Positions 4,329 through 37,574 of a stretch of 37,664 bases of DNA are shown piece by piece; the stretch's first letter is position 1, and the number at the start of each line of letters is the position of its first letter. The notes beneath the pieces are model-generated. The model saw only the letters and a list, made by a program, of their open reading frames with translations, searched no databases and was not told the DNA's origin. Where the stretch lies: positions 1-37,664 of the IMG/VR virus record IMGVR_UViG_3300026125_000008, one strand, 5' to 3'. Both the position numbers and the translations under genes were made by a program. The stretch is from a virus. Taxonomy: Duplodnaviria; Caudoviricetes.

Positions 4329-4617
4329 TGTGTTCTCCAACTAATTTATTATATTTACTACCTAATCTTATTTTTCTCATAACTACATATTGATTATCAT
4401 TATATACTAATGTTATTTTAATATATTTTCCATTTTTAAGTTTATTTAATATTCTACCTAATTTAGAACTACTCCAACCAAGAAAATCACATAACATTGT
4501 ATTACTTTTATAACAAACCTCATCATCTCTTCTAAAATGATGAATAATTGATAATAATAATAATTCATCTCCATTTAATTTTTTAACTAACCCAATAGGT
4601 GTTTTTAGATATTCCAT
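4315..4617 (-). CDS. Winged-HTH protein, probable replication initiator-like
   Basis: CYKSNTMLCDFLGWSSSKLGRILNKLKNGKYI resembles phage initiator HTH domains; AAGGAG RBS; first gene of the replication operon. Confidence 0.7.
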   Translation of the reverse strand: MEYLKTPIGLVKKLNGDELLLLSIIHHFRRDDEVCYKSNTMLCDFLGWSSSKLGRILNKLKNGKYIKITLVYNDNQYVVMRKIRLGSKYNKLVGEHNDNN

Positions 4618-4645
4618 TGTTCTCCTTTTTTATATTTGTAGTGAA

Positions 4646-4677
4646 ATGATAACATATAAAACTTAAAAAAAACTTAA
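4646..4677 (-). promoter_or_regulatory. Sigma70-type promoter of the replication operon
   Basis: Minus strand TTAAGTTTTTTTTAAG, 10 nt, then TATCAT preceded by TGn. Confidence 0.65.
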
Positions 4678-4699
4678 TTATGAATATATCTCTAAAAAT

Positions 4700-5770
4700 A
4701 AACCTATATTCATTTTTGAGGTGCCTTCAAATGTGGGAAGTAAAATATATATCTTCAATATATATATTTAATGAAGGTAAATAAATTATACCTTCAATTT
4801 AAATGAGATTACATATAAATGAGTAGATGTTAAATGAGACATCCTTTAAAAGGTGTTAAAGGTATCTTCATTATACTGTTTATTGTATTTCATTTAAAGG
4901 TAGAGAGAAAAACTTTTATGAGTTTTCTCTCCTTAATTCCTTTTACCTTTTATTTTAAAGGAATATATCTTTTACTATTACCACCTGTAAATAGAGAAAA
5001 ACTTTTAGAGTTTTCTCTATACCTCTTTATTTTGCATTTCTTTAATGGTTTTTGTAGTCTCCTTATAATTTGAGTAGAAGATTACTTTTAATGTAGTTTC
5101 TGTTTAAAATAATGTAGTCTCCTTGATAAAGTGAAAGGTTTTTGAATGGAGATTGTTATAAGGAGATTGAGTAGAGTGTAAGTAGAGTGTAAGAGTTAAA
5201 GAAATTACCTCTACTATAAAGAATGCTATACACAATGGAAATGGTTAAAGTTATTACCTTATTATTTAGTTAAAGAGGTTTCTTTAAAAGTTATTATAGA
5301 TGAGATTTCCTTAAAGTATAGAATGGTATTAGTTGTTTTTGGGGAAATCTCAATACTTGTGAAATCCAGCAAAGGAAGATACAAGTTCTAAAACCCAAGA
5401 AAAATAACAAAAAAAGTTTAGGTCATTTCCTAATTAAGGAAGTGCCCTTTTACATATGAAACCCCCATAAAATGGGACTTCTTTAAATTATTACTTACTA
5501 ATTATTTCCTTTTTTCCACACTTCCATTCCACAAAAGAAACTACCTTTTAAGGAAGTCTCCCTATATTTTTACTTTTTTTTTCATTGATAGGGGGGGGTG
5601 GGGTCCCCTCTTTTATTTTTAAATATTTATCTTACCCCCATAGGAAAATTATAAAATTTTAAAAACCCAAAGCCTTCTTAAACCCTTTTTAAATGAAACT
5701 TCTTTAACCTTTTAACCAAATTACTACAACCATTAAAGAAACCTCTTTAAAATGCAAAATAAAGGTATCT
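4700..5770. repeat. Non-coding region rich in degenerate direct and inverted repeats
   Basis: Two copies of AGAGAAAAACTTTTA(T)GAGTTTTCTCT (4903-4931, 4991-5020); exact 18 bp inverted pair 5270-5287/5733-5750; 15 bp pair 5025-5039/5750-5764; G tract 5591-5603. Confidence 0.75.
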
Positions 5771-5820
5771 ACAATAAAAAGAATATACTTTCAAAAGAAT
5801 AACCACTTAAAAGGAAGTAA

Positions 5821-6669
5821 ATGGAACACATTAAAGGACTTGGAATACCTTACATGGGAAGTAAAAGAAAATTAGCACCAAAAATAGTTGATAAAATATT
5901 GGAAGATAACCCTAAATGTAAATACTTTTATGACCTTTTTGGTGGAGGTGGTGCTATATCTTTTGAAGCCTCACAAAGAATAGATAATGTTTATTACAAT
6001 GAGTTTGATACTGGTATAACTGAATTATTACAAAAGATAAAAAAAGAAGGTATTACAGAAGAATTTTATAAATGGATTGATAGAGAAACTTTTTTTGAAA
6101 TGAAAGAAGGTAAATGTTGGGAAGGTGGTTTTATTAAAACTTGTTGGTCTTTTGGTAATAATGGTAATAGTTATATGTATAGTAAAAATATAGAAGAAGA
6201 AAATATAACTGTAAATGAAGCAAGATTAAAACAACAAAGAATATTTACAACTACATTAAATGATAAAGAGAAGAAAGAATTAAAAGAAAAAATAGGTTGT
6301 ATAGTAGAAGGTGGTAATGTTAGAGTAATATCACAACATTTAGAAAGAATACAACATTTACAAAAATTAAAAGATTATATCAATTTTAATATAAGTAATT
6401 TATCATATGAAAAAGTAGAAATAAATACACCAGTTGAAGAAACAATTATATATTTAGACCCTCCTTACCAAAATACTTATCAATATCAAAATGATATTGA
6501 CCATGAAAAATTGTGGGAGTGGGTGAGAAATTGTCCTTATAAAGTTTATATTTCAAGTTATGAAGCACCTTTTGAAGAAGTATTAAGTATGGAACACAGA
6601 ACAACAGTAGCACAAAAAGCAAATAATAAAGTAGTTGAAAAGTTATTTGTAAATAAACCCTTACAATAA
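5821..6669 (+). CDS. DNA adenine methyltransferase, D12/Dam-like
   Basis: PYMGSK, DLFGGGG (SAM binding) and YLDPPY (catalytic) motifs; AAGGA RBS. Confidence 0.88.
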   Translation: MEHIKGLGIPYMGSKRKLAPKIVDKILEDNPKCKYFYDLFGGGGAISFEASQRIDNVYYNEFDTGITELLQKIKKEGITEEFYKWIDRETFFEMKEGKCWEGGFIKTCWSFGNNGNSYMYSKNIEEENITVNEARLKQQRIFTTTLNDKEKKELKEKIGCIVEGGNVRVISQHLERIQHLQKLKDYINFNISNLSYEKVEINTPVEETIIYLDPPYQNTYQYQNDIDHEKLWEWVRNCPYKVYISSYEAPFEEVLSMEHRTTVAQKANNKVVEKLFVNKPLQ

Positions 6670-7697: not shown

Positions 7698-7945
7698 TGG
7701 ATGCAGAAAAAATAATAGATACTTTTATAGAGGAAGTAAGAAATCACTATATAGAAAATAGTGAAGACTTATTTAAAAATGAAATAGTAAAGCAAATGGA
7801 TAGTAGAGAATTATTAACACTATTAAAAAAAGAGAAATATATTGTAGATGATTTTGTAAATGGAGTAGAAATAAGAAGGGGTTCTTTTAGTTCTTCTTAT
7901 GGAAATATAATTAGAAGAAATAATAAAATATTAGTATTAGAGTAA
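7697..7945 (+). CDS. Hypothetical protein
   Basis: 82 aa ORF, TAATG coupling. Confidence 0.7.
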   Translation: MDAEKIIDTFIEEVRNHYIENSEDLFKNEIVKQMDSRELLTLLKKEKYIVDDFVNGVEIRRGSFSSSYGNIIRRNNKILVLE

Positions 7946-7980
7946 TCAAAGTATAAGATATAATTGAGAAAGGAGTTTAT

Positions 7981-8664
7981 ATGCCAAAAAGACCAGAATT
8001 AACAGATGAAAGTTTTTATAAACAGTTTGGAAGTGAAATAAAAAGAGATATTACTTCAAAAGATAAAGATATTATTGAAGATATAGAGGAAGATTTTCCA
8101 GACCCAGAGGACTTTAAAAGGAAGTTAATAAGATTTTCAGATGCAGTATTTCAAGTATCAAATATAAGTACAACAGAATATATAAGGGCAGTATGGTTTT
8201 GTTCTTTATATGCACAAGGGAAATCTCAATTAGAATGTTATAGAAAAGTATTTCCTGAAAGAGTTGCAAAAAAGAAACAAGGTAATTCAACAATAGGGAA
8301 TAGTGCTTCAATGTATTTTAATTCTATGTTAGTGCAAGCAATATGGAAACAAGTAAGTGTAGCAGACCATATGTTATTTATTGATACAAGATTTAAAGCA
8401 TATCAAGTATTAGAAGAAATAATGGATGACCATATGGCAAGTAAGAGAGATAGAATAGATGCAGCAGGTAAGTTAGCCACTTTATTAAAACCACCAAAAG
8501 AGACAGAGGTAAGAGTAAATATAGGTTATCAAAGTAAAGAAATCAAAGCATTAGAAGAGAAATTGGGACAAATTGCAGATTTACAATTAAATCAATTACA
8601 AATAGGTAATATCAATAATAGAGATATAGTAGAAGCAGAAATTTTTGAAAAGGATGATGAATGA
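7981..8664 (+). CDS. Probable terminase small subunit (N4 gp69-like)
   Basis: YIRAV and RIDAAGKLATLLKPP motifs recalled from N4-like small terminases; upstream of TerL; AAGGAG RBS. Confidence 0.65.
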   Translation: MPKRPELTDESFYKQFGSEIKRDITSKDKDIIEDIEEDFPDPEDFKRKLIRFSDAVFQVSNISTTEYIRAVWFCSLYAQGKSQLECYRKVFPERVAKKKQGNSTIGNSASMYFNSMLVQAIWKQVSVADHMLFIDTRFKAYQVLEEIMDDHMASKRDRIDAAGKLATLLKPPKETEVRVNIGYQSKEIKALEEKLGQIADLQLNQLQIGNINNRDIVEAEIFEKDDE

Positions 8665-9179
8665 GTTTAGCAACAGATTTTGATGGTATTCAAAGACCAT
8701 TATTTATAAGAAGATTAGAAAATAATGGAAGTGATTTAATGAATGTAGATGGTTCTATTACACCAGTATCATTTAAATTACAACCAGCAAGTAATGAGAT
8801 TTTAAGAGTATCAAATTGGTTTATTTATATTGAGGATGAAAAAGGATTTAATATAACAGATTATGGTGCATTAGCAGGACCTTTAACAAATGGATTAGAA
8901 ATTAAAGCCTCAATAGGTGGAAGATATGGACCACTTATTTCATTTAATGTAAAAAGTAATGCAGATATTATTTCAGTAGCATATGATATGGATTTAAAAA
9001 CTTGGGGAAATGATAATGATGTATTAGTAGCAAAGATTGATTTTACAAATATGGGTCAATTTGTAAGACTTGATGGTTCACAAGGTGATTTTCTTGAAGT
9101 AATAGTAAATGATAATTTAACTAATTTAGGGAAACAAGTAATAACTGCACAAGGTTATATAGAAGATAAGGTATTTTAA
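8661..9179 (+). CDS. Hypothetical protein, possibly virion-associated
   Basis: 172 aa beta-rich ORF, ATGA overlap with TerS. Confidence 0.7.
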   Translation: MSLATDFDGIQRPLFIRRLENNGSDLMNVDGSITPVSFKLQPASNEILRVSNWFIYIEDEKGFNITDYGALAGPLTNGLEIKASIGGRYGPLISFNVKSNADIISVAYDMDLKTWGNDNDVLVAKIDFTNMGQFVRLDGSQGDFLEVIVNDNLTNLGKQVITAQGYIEDKVF

Positions 9180-10001: not shown

Positions 10002-12413
10002 ATGGAAAAAAAGACTGTTCCTGAATATTTAGCAGAATTAGATTATGATTTTAAAAATTATATTCCTTCAAAATCTTCTGTAAAGTTTATAAATTTTATT
10101 AAATTAGTAAATTATTCAAAAGGTGGTGAAGAAAATAAAAGTCCAGTAGTGCATATGAAAATGTTGGATAGTGTATTTAATGCTCAAAAAAGAACAGCAA
10201 TTATGTGTCATAGGGGGATTGCAAAAGCACTTTCATTAGATAGTAAATTATATACAGATAATGGAATAATAACAATTAAAGATTGTAAAGTTGGAGATAA
10301 AATTATAGGTGAGAATGGACAATTTACAACAATAACACATAAAAGTGAAATCTTTAATAAGAAAATGTATAAAATAACATTAGAAGATGGAAGAAGTATA
10401 AAAGTAAGTGAAGACCATATAAATACAGTTATTCATAGAAGAAGAGTTGCATTATCACCTAAAAAGGGGACTACTATAATTGAGAGAAGGGATTTAACAA
10501 CAAAAGACTTATTAAAGTATGCCTTAACTTCACCAAGAGGGGCTACAAAAAGAAATCCAAAGGGGTATGAAAATAATTTTTGGATACCTTTACCAGAACC
10601 AGCACAATATAGTGAAAAACAATTAAAAAAAGACCCTTATGAATATGGAGTAGAATTATCAAAAAGAACAGAAGATAATCCTATACCTAATCAATATTTA
10701 TTTTCTTCTTTTAATCAAAGATTGGAATTATTAAAAGGGTATATGGATAATAAAGGAATAATAACAAATAAAGGTTCAGTTTCTTTTAAATGTGAATATG
10801 AATTACTTAAAGAGAGTTTAATGACACTTATTTATAGTTTAGGTGGAATTGCAAAGAAGAGTGGTTTTAATGTAAATATTCAAATAAATATAAACCTTTT
10901 TAAAGAAGAAAGCAAAGCAAGAAATTTTAAAGATAATTCAAAAAATAAAATAGCAATAGAGAGAATTGAAGAAATAGAGATAGAACCTTCACAATGTATT
11001 TCAGTAGATAATGAGAGTAAAACTTTTTTAACAGATAATTATATAGTTACTCATAATACTACTTTAATGGCAGAGTATATGTTCTTATATATAGCAACTT
11101 TTGGAAAATTAGATGGTTTTGGTAAAATTGATTTGGCTATTTATGTATCAGATAGTATAGAGAATGGTGTAAAGAATTTAAGAAGAAATATAGAATATAG
11201 ATATGAAGAAAGTGAGTTTTTAAAAGACCACATACCTTATATAAGGTTTACAGATACAAGATTAGAGTTTAGGAATAAAGAAGGTCATGTATTTATTGTA
11301 AAAATGTATGGTGCAAAAACAGGTGTAAGGGGGTCAAAAGAAAAAGGTATGAGACCACAATTAGCAGTATTAGATGACTTAGTATCAGATGAAGATGCAA
11401 GGTCTCAAACAATTATATCTACAATTGAAGATACAGTGCATAAAGCAGTATCAAAAGCCCTACACCCTACAAGAAGTAAGACTATATGGTTGGGAACTCC
11501 ATTTAATCAAGGAGACCCATTATATAAAGCAGTAGAAAGTGGTGCTTGGAATGTAAGTGTTTATCCAGTTGCAGAGAGTTTTGATGAGTTTACTAAACCA
11601 GATAATTTTAAAAGTGCTTGGCCTGATAGATTTACTTATGAATATGTAAAAGATGAGTATGAGAGTGCAAAGAAGCAAGGAAAATTAGATGGATTTTTTC
11701 AGGAGTTAATGTTGGAAGTTATAAGTGATGAAGAGAGAGTAATAAAGGATGAGGATATTATTCCTTATGATTATATGAAGATAAAAGATAATATAGATGA
11801 AATGAACATTTATATAACAACAGACTTTGCAACAAGTGAAAAGGGGAGTGCTGACTACTCTGCAATTTCAGTTTGGGGTGTAAATAATAATGATAACTGG
11901 ATTTGGTTAGATGGAATATGTTCAAGACAACTAATGAATAAGAATATAGATCAATTATTTAAGTTTGTGCAAATATATAAACCTATGAGTGTTGGAGTTG
12001 AGGTTTCAGGACAACAAGGTGGTTTCATTCAATGGATAAAAAATGAAATGATGAATAGAAGGATATATTTTAATCTTGCTTCTGCAAATAATACAAATAA
12101 AGAAGGAATAAGACCAAGGAAAAATAAACTTGAAAGAATGTTAGAGGTTCAACCAAGATTTAAACAAAAAAAGATATGGCTTCCAGAAAATCATAGAAAA
12201 GAAGTAATAAATGAAATGAAGCAAGAATTAAAAGGAATTACTATGACAGGTATTAAATCAAAACATGACGACCTTTTAGATACAATTTCTATGATGAATG
12301 AAATGCCAATTGTAGTTCCAAGTGTAGAACAGACTTTAAGATATGATAGTATTCATGAGGAATGGATTACAGATGATTATGATAATAACAATAATTCATA
12401 TATAATTGACTAA
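10002..12413 (+). CDS. terL: Terminase large subunit (N4 gp68-like) containing an intein
   Basis: Walker A HRGIAK/TT split by an intein, Walker B AVLDD, GTP coupling motif, nuclease motifs TTDFA and KHDDLLD. Confidence 0.92.
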   Translation: MEKKTVPEYLAELDYDFKNYIPSKSSVKFINFIKLVNYSKGGEENKSPVVHMKMLDSVFNAQKRTAIMCHRGIAKALSLDSKLYTDNGIITIKDCKVGDKIIGENGQFTTITHKSEIFNKKMYKITLEDGRSIKVSEDHINTVIHRRRVALSPKKGTTIIERRDLTTKDLLKYALTSPRGATKRNPKGYENNFWIPLPEPAQYSEKQLKKDPYEYGVELSKRTEDNPIPNQYLFSSFNQRLELLKGYMDNKGIITNKGSVSFKCEYELLKESLMTLIYSLGGIAKKSGFNVNIQININLFKEESKARNFKDNSKNKIAIERIEEIEIEPSQCISVDNESKTFLTDNYIVTHNTTLMAEYMFLYIATFGKLDGFGKIDLAIYVSDSIENGVKNLRRNIEYRYEESEFLKDHIPYIRFTDTRLEFRNKEGHVFIVKMYGAKTGVRGSKEKGMRPQLAVLDDLVSDEDARSQTIISTIEDTVHKAVSKALHPTRSKTIWLGTPFNQGDPLYKAVESGAWNVSVYPVAESFDEFTKPDNFKSAWPDRFTYEYVKDEYESAKKQGKLDGFFQELMLEVISDEERVIKDEDIIPYDYMKIKDNIDEMNIYITTDFATSEKGSADYSAISVWGVNNNDNWIWLDGICSRQLMNKNIDQLFKFVQIYKPMSVGVEVSGQQGGFIQWIKNEMMNRRIYFNLASANNTNKEGIRPRKNKLERMLEVQPRFKQKKIWLPENHRKEVINEMKQELKGITMTGIKSKHDDLLDTISMMNEMPIVVPSVEQTLRYDSIHEEWITDDYDNNNNSYIID
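10227..11057 (+). mobile_element. 277 aa intein with a degenerate LAGLIDADG domain
   Basis: Starts ALSLDS, block B SEDH, block F SQCISV, ends IVTHN followed by Thr; removing it restores the Walker A motif. Confidence 0.9.
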
Positions 12414-17766: not shown

Positions 17767-18069
17767 ATGGATAAAAATAATATAAATATGCAAGATTATT
17801 TAATAATTCTTCATGAAAATCAATTATCTATTAAAAACTTAACTGCTAATGTTGAAAAATTATCACTACATTTGGACAAAATGGTAGAAAAACAAACTGA
17901 AATGTTATTAGAACATAAAGATTTAGAACTTACTAAAAAAGATATATCTGGTTTAGGAACAAGAGTATCAAAATTGGAAAACTCTTTAAATTGGGTTGTA
18001 AGGTCTCTTTTTGGAGCAATTATAACAATTGGTGTAGGAATGATTTTATTTACATTAAAAGGTGGTTGA
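17767..18069 (+). CDS. Lysis-module membrane protein (XhlA-like: coiled coil plus C-terminal TM helix)
   Basis: RVSKLENSLNWVVR followed by a hydrophobic segment; adjacent to the holin. Confidence 0.6.
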   Translation: MDKNNINMQDYLIILHENQLSIKNLTANVEKLSLHLDKMVEKQTEMLLEHKDLELTKKDISGLGTRVSKLENSLNWVVRSLFGAIITIGVGMILFTLKGG

Positions 18070-18070
18070 T

Positions 18071-18517
18071 ATGAGTATATTAAGTGAAATATTCTCTTCA
18101 AGTGTAGGAGAAGTAGTAAAACAAGTAGGTGATGTTGCTGATGAACTTTTTACAAGTGATGAAGAAAAATTAGTATTAAAACAAAAATTAAGAGAAATAG
18201 AACTAAATGCAAAACTTCAATTAAAAGAAATTGAAATAAAAGAAGAACAAGAAAAAACAAAAAGATGGGAAAGTGATAATATAAATGGGTCTTGGTTATC
18301 TAAAAATGTAAGACCTGCTTCATTAGTATATTTAATGGCAATAATTACAGCAATGGCTTTTTCAGATGGAAATATAGGTCAATTTAAAATAGATCCTGCA
18401 TATGTAACACTATTTCAGACATTAGCAGTAACTGCATTTAGTGGTTATTTTGTAATGAGAACATTTGACAAGTTTAATAAAGAAAGGTATAATAATCAAA
18501 ATAATTCAAAGGAGTAA
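18071..18517 (+). CDS. Holin, 3TM-holin family
   Basis: FTSDEEK, RWESD, WLSKNVRP and YFVMRTFDK motifs with two hydrophobic helices; start moved to the ATG at 18071. Confidence 0.8.
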   Translation: MSILSEIFSSSVGEVVKQVGDVADELFTSDEEKLVLKQKLREIELNAKLQLKEIEIKEEQEKTKRWESDNINGSWLSKNVRPASLVYLMAIITAMAFSDGNIGQFKIDPAYVTLFQTLAVTAFSGYFVMRTFDKFNKERYNNQNNSKE

Positions 18518-32465: not shown

Positions 32466-33071
32466 TTAATTAGAGAAACTATTTAATAAATTAGTTCTTA
32501 ATTCTTCACTTGTTATGTATTTTTCAACAAAAATAATTAAGTTGTTTTTATCACTTTTTTTAACTTTATTAAACTCTAAAAATGTATCTACATCTATACC
32601 TCTACTCTTTAAATCATTAGAAAAAAGGTTCCATAATTCTCTTTTTCTTAATACTTCTGGGTCTTCACTTTTAGTAGTTTTTTCTACTTTATTATTCATA
32701 CTATCTGCATCTTTTACATCATCAATTGCAAACAATCCATTCATTGCATACTTCCTTGCATATGAAGAAGTAGCCCCAGTAATTTGACTCGCATCCATGC
32801 CTTTTCTTGTTTCTTCTTCTCTTGCAAAACCATTACCAATTGCAACAATATTATTATCTTTATCTCTTAATTCTGCTGTTGATTTTACATAAAATCTATC
32901 TTCTAATAAGACCATTTCATCTCTTACAATTACACTACATTCATACTTTTTTAATAGTGGTTTTAACCCTTCAAAAATATCTTCTAAACTTCTATATTTA
33001 TACTTTCCAAATCCATTATACTGGTTTTTAGGAGCATTTAATTCTACTTGAATTTTGTTTAATAAACTCAT
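32466..33071 (-). CDS. ERF-family single-strand annealing protein
   Basis: APKNQYNGFGKYKYRSLEDI and GMDASQITGATSSYARKYA...DAD motifs. Confidence 0.9.
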   Translation of the reverse strand: MSLLNKIQVELNAPKNQYNGFGKYKYRSLEDIFEGLKPLLKKYECSVIVRDEMVLLEDRFYVKSTAELRDKDNNIVAIGNGFAREEETRKGMDASQITGATSSYARKYAMNGLFAIDDVKDADSMNNKVEKTTKSEDPEVLRKRELWNLFSNDLKSRGIDVDTFLEFNKVKKSDKNNLIIFVEKYITSEELRTNLLNSFSN

Positions 33072-33189
33072 ACCTATCCTTTACTTTTATGTATATAATT
33101 ATACCAAAATAATAAAAATAATAAACTTTTTATAAATTAAATATAATTTATTTTTTTTCTATTATAATATAATCAAGCACAAATATTTA

Positions 33190-33775
33190 CTTTTTTTCCA
33201 CATTATATTTCTACTTAATTTTCCACACTTTTTGTATTACATAGTCATACACACCATTTCATAGTATTTCATTAAAAAAGTAATAATATAGGTTATTTCC
33301 ACAAATATAGGTGATAGTATAAAGAAACCCACTATATAGGGGGTTATAGAGTGATTTATTTTTTTCCTAAACTTTTCCACAAAATAAGGTGGTATTTTTA
33401 TTTTTTTGATTATAATTAAATTAGAAAGTATGGAAAATAGGGGGTTTAAGGTTTAGGCCACCTCCTTAAAAGGGAAGTGTCTTGAAACTTAAAAACCTCT
33501 TACAAATACCCTATTTATAGGGGGTTATAACCTTAATGATAGATAAAACTATCTAATTTTTTTCCACACTTTTGCCCATTTTAGGGCTTTTGCAATACAT
33601 TTAAGTTTTTTTTAAGATTTAGTAGTATATAATTCAATATATTTGTTAGGTCATCTCTCTAATGGAACTGACCTTTAACTTAAATATTGAAAAAAATTAA
33701 AAAAAAAGCAAAATAAAAAATAATTTTTAAAAAAAGTATTATAATTGATTTAAGTAATACATAGTAATACAAAAA
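33190..33775. other. Putative attP/control region upstream of the integrase
   Basis: Tandem arm-type-like repeats at 33234-33251 and 33754-33771; exact 14-mer TATAGGGGGTTATA twice; four TTTTCCACA copies. Confidence 0.5.
33601..33633 (+). promoter_or_regulatory. Sigma70-type promoter upstream of the integrase
   Basis: TTAAGTTTTTTTTAAG, 11 nt, then TATAAT (33628-33633). Confidence 0.65.
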
Positions 33776-33790
33776 AACAAAGGAAAAACA

Positions 33791-35065
33791 ATGGCAAAAA
33801 AAACAACAAAAATTAACTTACCAGGATTAACTGGACCTTCTGCAAAAGGAATATATTCTTATAAAAAAAGAACACCTGCTGCATTATTAAATTACATAGA
33901 TAAAAAAGAATTATGGATCCCAATTGGGAAAACAATTGCAAGATATGATGAAGTAGTTTCTAAAATTGAAACAGCAACTCAATTAGCAGAAAATGATTTC
34001 ATTCCAGAAGAACAAAAAAAAGAATTGATTTTAAATCTTTTAGGTGAAGAAGATAAATCAGTTTATAAAAAAGTAAAAGTAGTTTCAGAAGAAGAAGATT
34101 TAAAAATCTCAAATATTTTTAAAAGTTTCATCAAACATAAAACTGACATTTCAGAAATTAGTGATAAGACAGTTGAAGGTTATGAAAGAACATTCAAAAT
34201 TATTTTATCAATCACAGGTGATGTTTCAATTTTTAATTTCAATGCAAAGTTCATTGATGAGTTAAGAGTGATTATGAAAAGATTACCAAATTCTGGTTTA
34301 GGTAAATATCAAAAAAATGGAACAGAAGAAATTGTTAAAAAAGTTGTAAGAGATTTTTATGAGAAAAATTTTTCTTTTAGATTACCAGAAGAAGATTTAA
34401 TTAAAATATCAACTGTAAATAAATCATTAGTTCAATTTAATGCAGTGTTAAAATATTTTTATGAAAAAGGTGAAAATAATGAAGGATTTAAATATTGTAA
34501 AGTTGAACAATTTAAAGATGAAAGAGATGAGAATACATTAAGACTAACTTTTAATGAAAATGAATTATCTAAAATGTTAAATGGTTATACAATATTCTCT
34601 CAAATGGCAAGAGTATTTTATTTTTCTGGTTTAAGACCTGCTGAACTATTAAAAGGTAAATTAAAAGTAATTGATGGTATAACTGTATTTTCTCTTTTAA
34701 AAGAAGATATTACAACTGGTGTAAAATTAAAAAATAAATATTCTCATAGATTAGTTCCTGTTCATAAAAAAATAGAAAATGATATTGTTGAGGTTATTAA
34801 ATATTTTAATTCATTAAAAGACCCTTCTGGTGCCTATAGATATTTTAAAAGACATTTTGTAGATAAAAAAGTAATTAGTTCTGATATAGAAAAAAAATCA
34901 TTATATTCATTAAGACATAATTTTGCAACTAAATTAAATGAAATGAAAATTGATATGGAAATTAAAAAAAGACTAATGGGACATGCACAAGAAGATTTAA
35001 TTATGAAAGTTTATACAAAAGATGAAAAATTAGAAACTTTAAATGAAGTTATTCAATCAATGTAA
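33791..35065 (+). CDS. int: Tyrosine recombinase/phage integrase
   Basis: SGLRPAEL (R), LKN (K), YSLRHNFAT, LMGH and VYT (Y) catalytic residues; AAGGA RBS. Confidence 0.92.
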   Translation: MAKKTTKINLPGLTGPSAKGIYSYKKRTPAALLNYIDKKELWIPIGKTIARYDEVVSKIETATQLAENDFIPEEQKKELILNLLGEEDKSVYKKVKVVSEEEDLKISNIFKSFIKHKTDISEISDKTVEGYERTFKIILSITGDVSIFNFNAKFIDELRVIMKRLPNSGLGKYQKNGTEEIVKKVVRDFYEKNFSFRLPEEDLIKISTVNKSLVQFNAVLKYFYEKGENNEGFKYCKVEQFKDERDENTLRLTFNENELSKMLNGYTIFSQMARVFYFSGLRPAELLKGKLKVIDGITVFSLLKEDITTGVKLKNKYSHRLVPVHKKIENDIVEVIKYFNSLKDPSGAYRYFKRHFVDKKVISSDIEKKSLYSLRHNFATKLNEMKIDMEIKKRLMGHAQEDLIMKVYTKDEKLETLNEVIQSM

Positions 35066-35075
35066 GAGGTGTAAA

Positions 35076-35978
35076 ATGAAAAAAATACATTTCTTATATG
35101 AGATAAAAAATAAAAAGTTTCAAAAAAGTTATATAGGTGTTAGGTCTTCTAACTTTATTGATTTAGGTATTAAATACTTTTCTTCTTCTACTGATAAAGA
35201 TTTTATGGAAGAACAAAAGTTATACCCTTATAGATTTGATTATATTGTTTTATTATTATGTGATACAAGAGAAGAAGCATTATCTTATGAGGTTTATTTA
35301 CATAATCATTTTAATGTATCTAATAATGATAATTTTTATAATAAAAGTAATCAAACCTCTGTTGGATTTGATACAACAGGAATAATTAGAAGTGAAGAAG
35401 TAAAAGACAAAATAAGACAAACACAATTAAAAATATTTGAAGACCAATCAAAAAGAGAAAAATCAAGAATTGTAGCAAATAATTGGTGGTTAGAAAATGA
35501 AGAAAAAAAACAAGAATATAGTGAAAGATTAAAAAATAAAATATCAAATAATGCTAAAAAGGTTATACTATTAAAAAAATCTACTAATGAAGAAATTATT
35601 TTTAATAGTATTAAAGAATGTAGTGAATATTTAGAAGTATGTGTTACAACTATGAAATCATATGTGTATCATGGTTTTCCAAAAAAAGAAAGTGTAAATC
35701 AATTTGGTAGTAATAAAAAAGTTTTAGATTATGAATTTGTTATGATAAATGGCGAAGATTATACTAATAATATTTTTAAGCCTCCAAAAGAAAGAGGTCA
35801 AAAAATTGTGTTATATCAAAAATCAACTGATAAGATAATTACATTTTCAAGTTTAAATAAATGTATAAAGTTTTTAAAAGTCAGTAAAAATAGTTTTTAT
35901 AAATACATTAAGAAAGGGTTTCCAGAAAAACTAAAAGACTATGAAATTGTAAAACTTGAAAAAAATAACTCTCCTTAA
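35076..35978 (+). CDS. GIY-YIG (Seg-like) homing endonuclease with NUMOD-type repeats
   Basis: FLYEIKN...SYIGVRS, EEALSYE and FYNK motifs; two IxFxSxxxCxxxL repeats; GAGG RBS before the ATG at 35076. Confidence 0.82.
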   Translation: MKKIHFLYEIKNKKFQKSYIGVRSSNFIDLGIKYFSSSTDKDFMEEQKLYPYRFDYIVLLLCDTREEALSYEVYLHNHFNVSNNDNFYNKSNQTSVGFDTTGIIRSEEVKDKIRQTQLKIFEDQSKREKSRIVANNWWLENEEKKQEYSERLKNKISNNAKKVILLKKSTNEEIIFNSIKECSEYLEVCVTTMKSYVYHGFPKKESVNQFGSNKKVLDYEFVMINGEDYTNNIFKPPKERGQKIVLYQKSTDKIITFSSLNKCIKFLKVSKNSFYKYIKKGFPEKLKDYEIVKLEKNNSP

Positions 35979-35984
35979 AGAAAA

Positions 35985-36016
35985 TTAAGTTTTTTTTAAG
36001 TTTTTTGTTGTATAAT
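35985..36016 (+). promoter_or_regulatory. Sigma70-type promoter with no downstream ORF
   Basis: TTAAGTTTTTTTTAAG, 10 nt, then TATAAT (36011-36016). Confidence 0.7.
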
Positions 36017-36022
36017 ACTTGT

Positions 36023-36147
36023 ATGGTTTTACTTCATTAAGTATTACCTATCAAATATATAAAGGTTTTTTCATTTTTACCTTTGCTATATTTTTTTCAT
36101 GTTTAATCCTATTTTAAAAAGGGGTTTTTCCACCACCCCTTTTTTTT
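36023..36147 (+). ncRNA. Candidate small RNA with three anti-RBS/anti-AUG modules
   Basis: Bounded by a promoter and an intrinsic terminator; CAT...CCT units at 36035-36049, 36072-36084 and 36098-36110. Confidence 0.6.
36116..36147. terminator. Bidirectional intrinsic terminator
   Basis: AAAAAGGGGT-loop-ACCCCTTTTTTTT between the sRNA candidate and the convergent endolysin. Confidence 0.8.
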
Positions 36148-36587
36148 CAATCTTTAATCAATTCAAAATGTGGGTAATCATTAAAAACTTGATCTGTAAA
36201 AACATCATTAGAGTTCCAATCACCCCCCCATCTTATATTATGAGTTATTTTACCTTCTTCTAATAATTCTTCTGTAATTGCTTTAACAAGACCTGCCAAA
36301 TAGAAAAACCTCATTGTATCTTCAACTTGACCACTAAAAGCATTAGTCCCTTTTTTGTAAGGTATAATATCTACTGCCATTGAAGGGTAATTTTGGTGTT
36401 TTGATTTTTTATTTACACCATCTAATTTACTTAATCCTCTTTTAAAATAATCTTTTTGTTGTTTTAATGTTCTATGACCTTCCAGAATACTTATATCATA
36501 ATACTTTATTACTTCATTCATTATTATTTGTAAGTCTTTATGGCAAGTATCTAACTTATCTTGTGATTTTTGTCCAAACTTATACAT
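36147..36587 (-). CDS. Endolysin, M15-family (L-Ala-D-Glu) peptidase
   Basis: EGHRT, SKH(x6)D, RWGGDW and DYPHFEL zinc-peptidase motifs. Confidence 0.9.
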   Translation of the reverse strand: MYKFGQKSQDKLDTCHKDLQIIMNEVIKYYDISILEGHRTLKQQKDYFKRGLSKLDGVNKKSKHQNYPSMAVDIIPYKKGTNAFSGQVEDTMRFFYLAGLVKAITEELLEEGKITHNIRWGGDWNSNDVFTDQVFNDYPHFELIKD

Positions 36588-36914
36588 TTATTCTCCTTTT
36601 TCTTCCATTAGTTCCATAACTTGCATTAAGGTAGTAAATACTAATTCACCTTTATTATTTAGTTTATCTACTATCTCTTCATATTTTTCACCATAATGGT
36701 CAAATTCTTCTAATACAAATATATACATTTCATAGTCTTCTAACTTCTCTAATTCTTTTTTAATATTCTTCATTATTATAATATAATTAAAGTAATCACT
36801 ACTATCATATTGTCTATCTTGGATAAACCTATTAGTAAAGTATTCTTCTGCTCTCTTTTCTACTTTTTCATACAATTCATTTAAGTTCATCATACTTTCT
36901 CTTTCTTTTTTCAT
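36588..36914 (-). CDS. Hypothetical protein
   Basis: 108 aa ORF abutting the endolysin; start uncertain. Confidence 0.65.
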   Translation of the reverse strand: MKKERESMMNLNELYEKVEKRAEEYFTNRFIQDRQYDSSDYFNYIIIMKNIKKELEKLEDYEMYIFVLEEFDHYGEKYEEIVDKLNNKGELVFTTLMQVMELMEEKGE

Positions 36915-37015
36915 TTAATTATAACACAAAAAAAGAATTACAAAAAAAATCACTTTATAAAAAATAATTTTTATTTTTAACTTTATAATACTTTATATTA
37001 CAAAAAGGAAAAGAC

Positions 37016-37210
37016 ATGAAAGATTTAAAAACAAAAGTATTACAGATAAGAGTAACAGAAAAGGAATATGAAAAACTTTTAGAATTATCTTCTGTAATTA
37101 GTGAAGATACAGGTATAGAAGAATTAGCACCTTCTACATTTGCAAGAGGTATTCTTTTTAAAGAATTAAAAAAATTAAGAAAACAATATAAATTAGAAAA
37201 AGGAAATTAA
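37016..37210 (+). CDS. Small ribbon-helix-helix-like DNA-binding protein
   Basis: LQIRVTEKEYEKL...STFARGIL pattern; AAGGA RBS. Confidence 0.65.
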   Translation: MKDLKTKVLQIRVTEKEYEKLLELSSVISEDTGIEELAPSTFARGILFKELKKLRKQYKLEKGN

Positions 37211-37211
37211 A

Positions 37212-37574
37212 ATGAAAAAAATAAAAAAATTATATGTAGAGTTTAATCTATTAAAAAAAGAAATAGAAATGATTAAACTTGATTATTCAAAAGTAAATTA
37301 TAGTTCTATCAATGAATTAAATTACAAGTTTATTAAACTTAAAAAAGAATTATTAAAAATAAATGAAGATAATTTAGAAAAAATAAAAGATATAACTTGT
37401 TATATAAGTATAAAACATGAATTAGAAATAATAGAAGAATTAAATATACCCAGACTTTATTCTGAATATTTACATTTAGAAAAAATAAAAGAAATAGATA
37501 AGGTGATAAAAAAAATAGATGAAGAAGATTTTTTTTCAGAAGATACAATAAAAGAGTTAGAAAAAGAAGAATAA
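37212..37574 (+). CDS. Hypothetical protein
   Basis: 120 aa ORF, AAGGA RBS. Confidence 0.65.
   Translation: MKKIKKLYVEFNLLKKEIEMIKLDYSKVNYSSINELNYKFIKLKKELLKINEDNLEKIKDITCYISIKHELEIIEELNIPRLYSEYLHLEKIKEIDKVIKKIDEEDFFSEDTIKELEKEE

Follow-up and report, generated by a model that had tools for sequence, protein, structure and literature searches.

A candidate small RNA with antisense start-site modules in two related tailed phages

Between a homing endonuclease gene (35076-35978, plus strand; NUMOD1-like by sequence match) and a convergent M15-family endolysin gene (36147-36587, minus strand; phrog_465, with PF13539 below cut-off), the phage genome analysed here—‘the window’, a stretch of 37,664 nt taken as a whole—carries a unit that, judged from sequence, is a credible two-member phage sRNA candidate. 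What we observe is its sequence, its predicted fold, its promoter at the syntenic site of a relative, G002, and an analogous architecture downstream of that promoter. We infer transcription, pairing and targets, and hold it about as probable as its opposite that the unit encodes a trans-acting sRNA that masks the Shine-Dalgarno (SD) sequence and AUG of a class of mRNAs starting with AUG-AAA-AAA.

The window is a 37.7-kb virus genome of 27% G+C that was judged complete. It encodes a terminase, a portal, a capsid protein, an integrase and five tRNAs and is, by annotation, a temperate tailed phage, the DNA of which is present in freshwater and seawater metagenome runs. We infer a host among the Campylobacterota from the style of the promoter and from the nearest Atlas cluster of the tyrosine integrase (33791-35065, plus strand), in which Campylobacterota is the commonest phylum and makes up most of the cluster (phylum known for six members). 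Searches with the tRNAs, the methyltransferase and the endolysin named no host, a capsid-protein scan of genomes returned no Campylobacterota genome among its matches, and scans of viral contigs found no relatives of the integrase or of the ORF at 36588-36914.

An earlier note, made from the letters of the window, had described a promoter with TATAAT at 36011 and a terminator at 36116-36147, enclosing about 125 nt devoid of any RBS-led ORF, and this description held in full. The promoter (35985-36016, plus strand) is of the Campylobacterota sigma70 type, with two TTAAG repeats 11 nt apart, a T-rich -16 region and TATAAT at 36011-36016. It fits the Campylobacter jejuni consensus as described in the available text of two papers, namely a -10 TATAAT with a T-rich -16 and TTnAAGTnTT (PMC3824568) and a periodic A/T pattern replacing the -35 box (PMC3656092). 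A generic sigma70 scan of the window did not include it among its calls. The double-TTAAG pattern occurs at two places in the window (at 33601, before the integrase, and at the unit), once in G002 (at the syntenic site) and nowhere in G001, the other of the two long relatives that capsid scans returned. The unit’s promoter has its first 16 nt in common with the promoter-like site at 33601, which itself lies in an intergenic stretch (33071-33791) with repeated TTTTCCACA motifs. Elsewhere in the window, at 2503-2650, a second plus-strand promoter-like site precedes two CAT units that resemble antisense starts, and a hairpin; this unit folds weakly (-15 to -17 kcal/mol).

With transcription starting 6-7 nt past the -10 box, the predicted sRNA would span about 125 nt (36023-36147, plus strand). 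The three antisense SD-AUG units previously proposed are present, with CAT triplets at 36035, 36072 and 36098, and RNAfold (-27.2 kcal/mol, z -5.28, none of 200 shuffles as good) gave the same picture as had been drawn by eye: two hairpins holding CAU in their loops and a single-stranded third module. Hairpin 1 (module 1; 36025-36048, plus strand) has a 4-nt CAUU loop, with the anti-SD ACC paired in its stem, and is the weakest module. Hairpin 2 (module 2; 36053-36093, plus strand) presents a U-rich loop of 12 nt, UUUUUCAUUUUU, in which CAU lies within a complement of AUG-AAA-AAA, and its anti-SD ACCUUU forms part of the 3’ stem. In module 3 (36094-36115, plus strand), both the anti-AUG and the anti-SD (UCCU, 36107-36110) are unpaired; with the anti-SDs of the other two buried in stems, it is the only accessible seed in the model and the predicted main one.

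The predicted RNA ends in a bidirectional intrinsic terminator (36116-36147, both strands; terminators were surveyed in the window only), with U8 on the plus and U5 on the minus strand and a C/U-rich loop at 36126-36134. Since this terminator is bidirectional and abuts or overlaps the endolysin stop (36147), the endolysin alone could account for it. On the plus strand, just one ATG ORF of any size is present (36099-36263, 54 aa); it lacks an SD and runs through the terminator. The unit has, in other words, what a trans-acting sRNA gene should have in its sequence—its own promoter and terminator and no ORF, although its G002 counterpart is without a U tail—together with a predicted accessible seed complementary to start sites, provided by module 3 and in part by modules 1 and 2.

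Three related phages supplied 109 genes for training a start-site model, which ranked the antisense starts among 1233 non-start ATGs, placing module 3 in the top 1.1%, module 2 in the top 2.0% and module 1 in the top 12.7%. Their summed score was reached by 19 of 2000 dinucleotide shuffles, for a region that had been picked post hoc. By the same score, the unit is not in the top eight of 1233 genome windows of 110 nt, the top windows being the sense strand of genes. Rfam 15 returned just the five tRNAs at E≤1 for the whole window, and in a local scan of the unit its best match had an E of 1.4, with all of these local matches far below gathering scores.

G002 is syntenic with the window; it has two integrases (~30% identical to the window’s one) and an endolysin that is 40% identical, while neither integrase nor endolysin was seen in G001. 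Directly behind the G002 endolysin gene, on the opposite strand and hence at the same spot as in the window, lies the promoter: this syntenic site is its best match in G002, scoring 22.5 versus 18.3 for the next best of 1560 G002 windows. It is followed by a unit of 105 nt with three CAU triplets (fold z -4.29), comprising a central hairpin with CAU in a U-rich loop, then, immediately on its 3’ side, an anti-SD left unpaired, and a 3’ hairpin whose loop is C-rich. No gene stands behind the promoter in either phage. Because the relative keeps both the promoter and, in the same location, a unit of similar build, a small RNA is likely, and the idea of an sRNA gene gains support.

The antisense-start score of the G002 unit was reached by 43 of 2000 shuffles, in a test that is less biased because the site had been chosen by position only. 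Its central 6-bp stem aligns with that of hairpin 2, its counterpart in the window, with three pairs changed on both sides (two sequences only). The G002 unit folds far better on the sRNA strand (-28.9 vs -20.6 kcal/mol); in the window, the two strands have folds of equal stability (-27.2 vs -26.8 kcal/mol). The conservation in relatives that the earlier note had proposed to check extends to the promoter and the build of the unit, but not to the bodies, the sequences of which are not significantly alike: their alignment did not rise above background (the syntenic site ranks 440th of 1560, the full unit 68th). Nor did the notion of three modular silencers carry over intact, as the G002 modules comprise one strong, one weak and one negative. 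The minimum-energy fold of G002 pairs the first and third CAU modules with each other, and the three-hairpin alternative costs 4.7 kcal/mol, yet short prefixes fold so.

Where the window has the homing endonuclease, G002 carries a tRNA-shaped RNA and a 65-aa ORF. In the former (L079:5094-5206, minus strand; Rfam tRNA, 37.5 bits), a 58-nt insert replaces the 17-nt anticodon arm; it has a TTTAAG..TAAAAT promoter-like site of its own and lies ~270 nt upstream of the promoter of the G002 unit. The ORF (L079:4825-5022, minus strand), just upstream of that promoter, has a signal-peptide-like start and no Pfam match, and its product is a possible exclusion moron. The two G002 integrases are in tandem (L079:5329-6534 and 7727-8950).

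What is demonstrably conserved—promoter and position, not the body—also fits the main rival explanation, which we consider rather unlikely: that a convergent promoter at the 3’ end of the endolysin gene damps the endolysin by antisense overlap or transcriptional interference, the SD-AUG look-alikes being incidental to U-rich hairpins. The ‘SD’ of module 2 is indeed merely one arm of an inverted repeat; on the other hand, both phages show an enrichment of antisense start sites. In the window, the U8 terminator restricts the overlap to ~30 nt of shared hairpin, although in G002 transcription could plausibly continue into the endolysin gene, the 3’ hairpin there lacking a U tail. The window’s endolysin lies outside the late operon and behind its own sigma70-like box, and would therefore need control, yet no module pairs well with its start, which is not in the top seven predicted module interactions. 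Convergent small RNAs at phage genes are known, among them lambda OOP/aQ RNA and PAK_P4as15, the latter tied to an endolysin gene (PMC12197685, available text); unlike these, the unit overlaps the endolysin mRNA only in the shared terminator hairpin.

As to the surroundings of the endolysin gene, it is encoded on the strand opposite to the late operon (holin at 18062-18517), and the box preceding it, TGnTATAAT at ~36926-36918, is divergent from an orphan gene (37016-37210, plus strand). The latter encodes 64 aa with a weak match to NikA, of the ribbon-helix-helix type (Pfam E 0.043, below cut-off), and had no relative among 1.84 billion representatives. The divergent pair (36147-37210) forms a possible small switch.

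The antisense starts may also be taken at face value. Read-through from the endolysin operon would then expose three SD-led minigenes on the minus strand (MKKI, MKKPLYI and MK) that sequester ribosomes or tRNA-Lys, for which the lambda bar minigenes provide a model. The three ATGs do open Lys-rich ORFs of 2-7 codons with closely coupled stops. Short ORFs are found at the G002 site too, but the peptides are not kept (MEKCLQQSS, MTPC and a 26-aa ORF). It is the opposite strand that carries the conserved promoter, and folding of the minigene strand in G002 is less favourable by 8 kcal/mol. Moreover, the window’s minigenes lie behind the minus-strand terminator with no space for a promoter, and the SDs of two of them would be buried in stems, so that we regard this reading as very improbable. 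An AapA/IsoA-like type I antitoxin, which would call for an opposite-strand ORF encoding a small hydrophobic toxin, was rejected, the opposite-strand ATG ORFs in the window measuring just 2-7 aa.

Pattern, model and descriptor searches for further members found no third homologue of the unit. Blastn of phages with the unit gave nothing meaningful, and BLAST against five related records gave short chance matches only, missing the G002 site. Endolysin scans gave access to the downstream DNA at 7 of 7, 4 of 80 and 55 of 80 loci; most were not syntenic, and the unit was seen only in the window’s own copy (L161). The module pattern matched 119 loci in viral contigs (53 of 64 parts of the collection), and among the matches listed it was accompanied by promoter and hairpin only in G002. 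When promoter and modules were combined in one pattern, two matches emerged, G002 and L365, of which L365 was rejected as a third member because its site lies inside a coding gene. A sequence-only model, R1, matched three sites in 97 sources—its two training sequences and L008, rejected as an ordinary terminator and gene start—and none of 43 records, with nothing new in seven further sources. A descriptor scan of 364 sequences gave 12 matches, and the nine of them that were listed held no new member; the scan is insensitive, given that it missed G002.

In a contig of run X4, a terminator with a C/U loop and U9 occupies the same place behind a related endolysin. The closest relative, a contig of run X6, is ~90% identical over 36154-37214 (endolysin 84% identical) and its sequence departs from that of the window in the 30 nt that could be seen next to the endolysin stop. 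The contents of the slot between integrase and endolysin differ among the window, G002 and the X6 contig. This variability would suit a functionless remnant, in which the promoter and terminator of a deleted accessory gene enclose gene-start stubs or chance U-rich sequence; that no third homologue turned up and that the shuffle p of ~0.01 is post hoc point the same way. Nevertheless, we deem a remnant quite improbable: the predicted three-hairpin fold is stable, the start-like units lie on one strand and the promoter on the other, and the double-repeat promoter is kept intact in a phage with an endolysin only 40% identical.

If the unit is a trans-acting sRNA, its targets might be sought among the phage’s own starts, and the earlier note had pointed to 12-nt matches within the window. 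Such matches exist, but they score no better than starts from other phages, and there is no exact complement of at least 13 nt in the window genome. Ranked by duplex energy, the leading own starts are 35076 and 313 with module 2; with module 3 they are 37016, 2363 and 37212. The anticipated excess of target pairing over controls failed to appear: compared with 156 starts of unrelated phages from 47 other loci, own starts were not significantly better (best-of-43 probability 0.57 for module 2 and 0.24 for module 3). With opening costs included in an accessibility-corrected model, module 3 is the one used in each of the seven best own interactions, which bears out the idea of three silencers only in part. 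The best predicted own target of module 3, the start of the orphan gene at 37016 (-16.1 kcal/mol), beats all 70 starts of the pool that were tried (70 of 156), yet a G002 integrase start reaches -16.3 kcal/mol, and the result is not significant. Among G002’s own predicted targets, its integrase starts rank first and third (not significant).

In both phages, only non-structural genes begin with ATGAAA, five in the window and seven in G002. The G002 modules read AUGGAA and AUGAAC rather than its own seven ATGAAA starts, and there is therefore no loop-target covariation. The proposal that MKK starts mark signal peptides found support in two Campylobacterota plasmids with 146 annotated genes: by a crude hydropathy rule, an N-terminal hydrophobic stretch followed 9 of 10 MKK starts vs 39 of the 136 other starts (p 2e-4). 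Preferential pairing of the modules with this class amounted to a non-significant trend for modules 3 and 2 (p 0.053 and 0.088) and was absent, even reversed, for the G002 modules (p 0.92 and 0.97).

For the trans-acting sRNA, we picture the following course of events. A host sigma70 promoter would drive the ~125-nt RNA and, being a host sigma70 promoter, would probably do so in the lysogen too. The RNA would pair over the RBS and AUG of mRNAs beginning AUG-AAA-AAA and repress their translation in trans, seeded mainly by the unpaired module 3. In hairpin 2, the U-rich loop with its CAU may serve as a toehold that can extend into the buried anti-SD, and the C/U-rich terminator loop may offer a further anti-SD site. 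Rather than a single gene, a class of starts would be targeted, including host exported proteins with MKK signal peptides and early genes of the phage itself and its relatives; the best single own candidate would be the neighbouring orphan gene at 37016. An extension of this mechanism, which we rate as improbable, is a class silencer whose exchangeable anti-start modules read AUG-AAA-AAA as a tag, damping at once the exported and receptor proteins of the host and early genes of Campylobacterota phages that compete with it—an RNA-based superinfection exclusion, reprogrammed by module swaps between phages.

The unit belongs to none of the known systems named below, as it has no Rfam match, no UCCC repeat and no matched own target. 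The LhrC sRNAs of Listeria monocytogenes carry three sites, in a loop, a single strand and the terminator loop (PMC4132741 and the review PMC8383071, available text), a layout that the unit resembles. However, the anti-SD motifs of LhrC are all UCCC, and it is encoded on the chromosome in multiple copies (PMC4132741, same text), whereas the repeated exposed motif of the unit is the anti-start CAU in a U-rich context, its modules differ and it is present in a single phage copy. An LhrC/RsaE-type multi-site sRNA was rejected for want of a repeated unpaired UCCC; an unpaired UCCU occurs once, and the terminator loop holds UUCCACC. CJnc190 of C. jejuni and RepG and NikS/HPnc4160 of Helicobacter pylori pair through C/U-rich loops over the RBS and start codon, NikS repressing several mRNAs by loop pairing (PMC8687705 and PMC8035401, in the sections available). 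They share with the unit a loop rich in C/U as well as its inferred host phylum, but are chromosomal, with validated, partly G-rich targets (same sections); the unit is phage-encoded, has an A/U-rich seed and lacks any sequence family match.

Among phage RNAs, the loops of the c4 antisense RNA of P1/P7 and sar of P22 pair around an RBS and block translation; unlike the unit, they have a defined target of their own, ant, with matching boxes (PMC12197685, available text). A c4/sar-type antisense RNA was rejected: there is no exact own match of at least 13 nt, and the G002 modules do not track its ATGAAA starts. A precedent for host targets, likened by description only, is svsR of prophage NC-SV, an enterobacterial and experimentally tested prophage sRNA that lowers a host envelope receptor (PMC12803456, available text). 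In the portions of the literature available, we found neither a trans-acting sRNA from a Campylobacterota phage nor a tandem anti-start-codon phage RNA; a similar RNA might be listed in supplementary sRNA tables, such as those of PMC3656092 and PMC12197685. H. pylori, the best-studied member of the lineage, is described as being without Hfq and ProQ (PMC8035401, available text). If true, our reading would add a regulator of phage origin to the lineage of this species, which has neither protein, and would mean that the start codon and the first codons, beyond the SD alone, select a class of mRNAs.

Two further features of the window deserve mention. The large terminase (10002-12413) contains ~270 residues (85-352) that are unmatched in the G001 terminase, giving no Pfam match and representing a possible insertion. 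Adjoining the replication genes, a long non-coding stretch (4617-5821) with short repeats, G/C tracts and hairpins is possibly an origin or control region.
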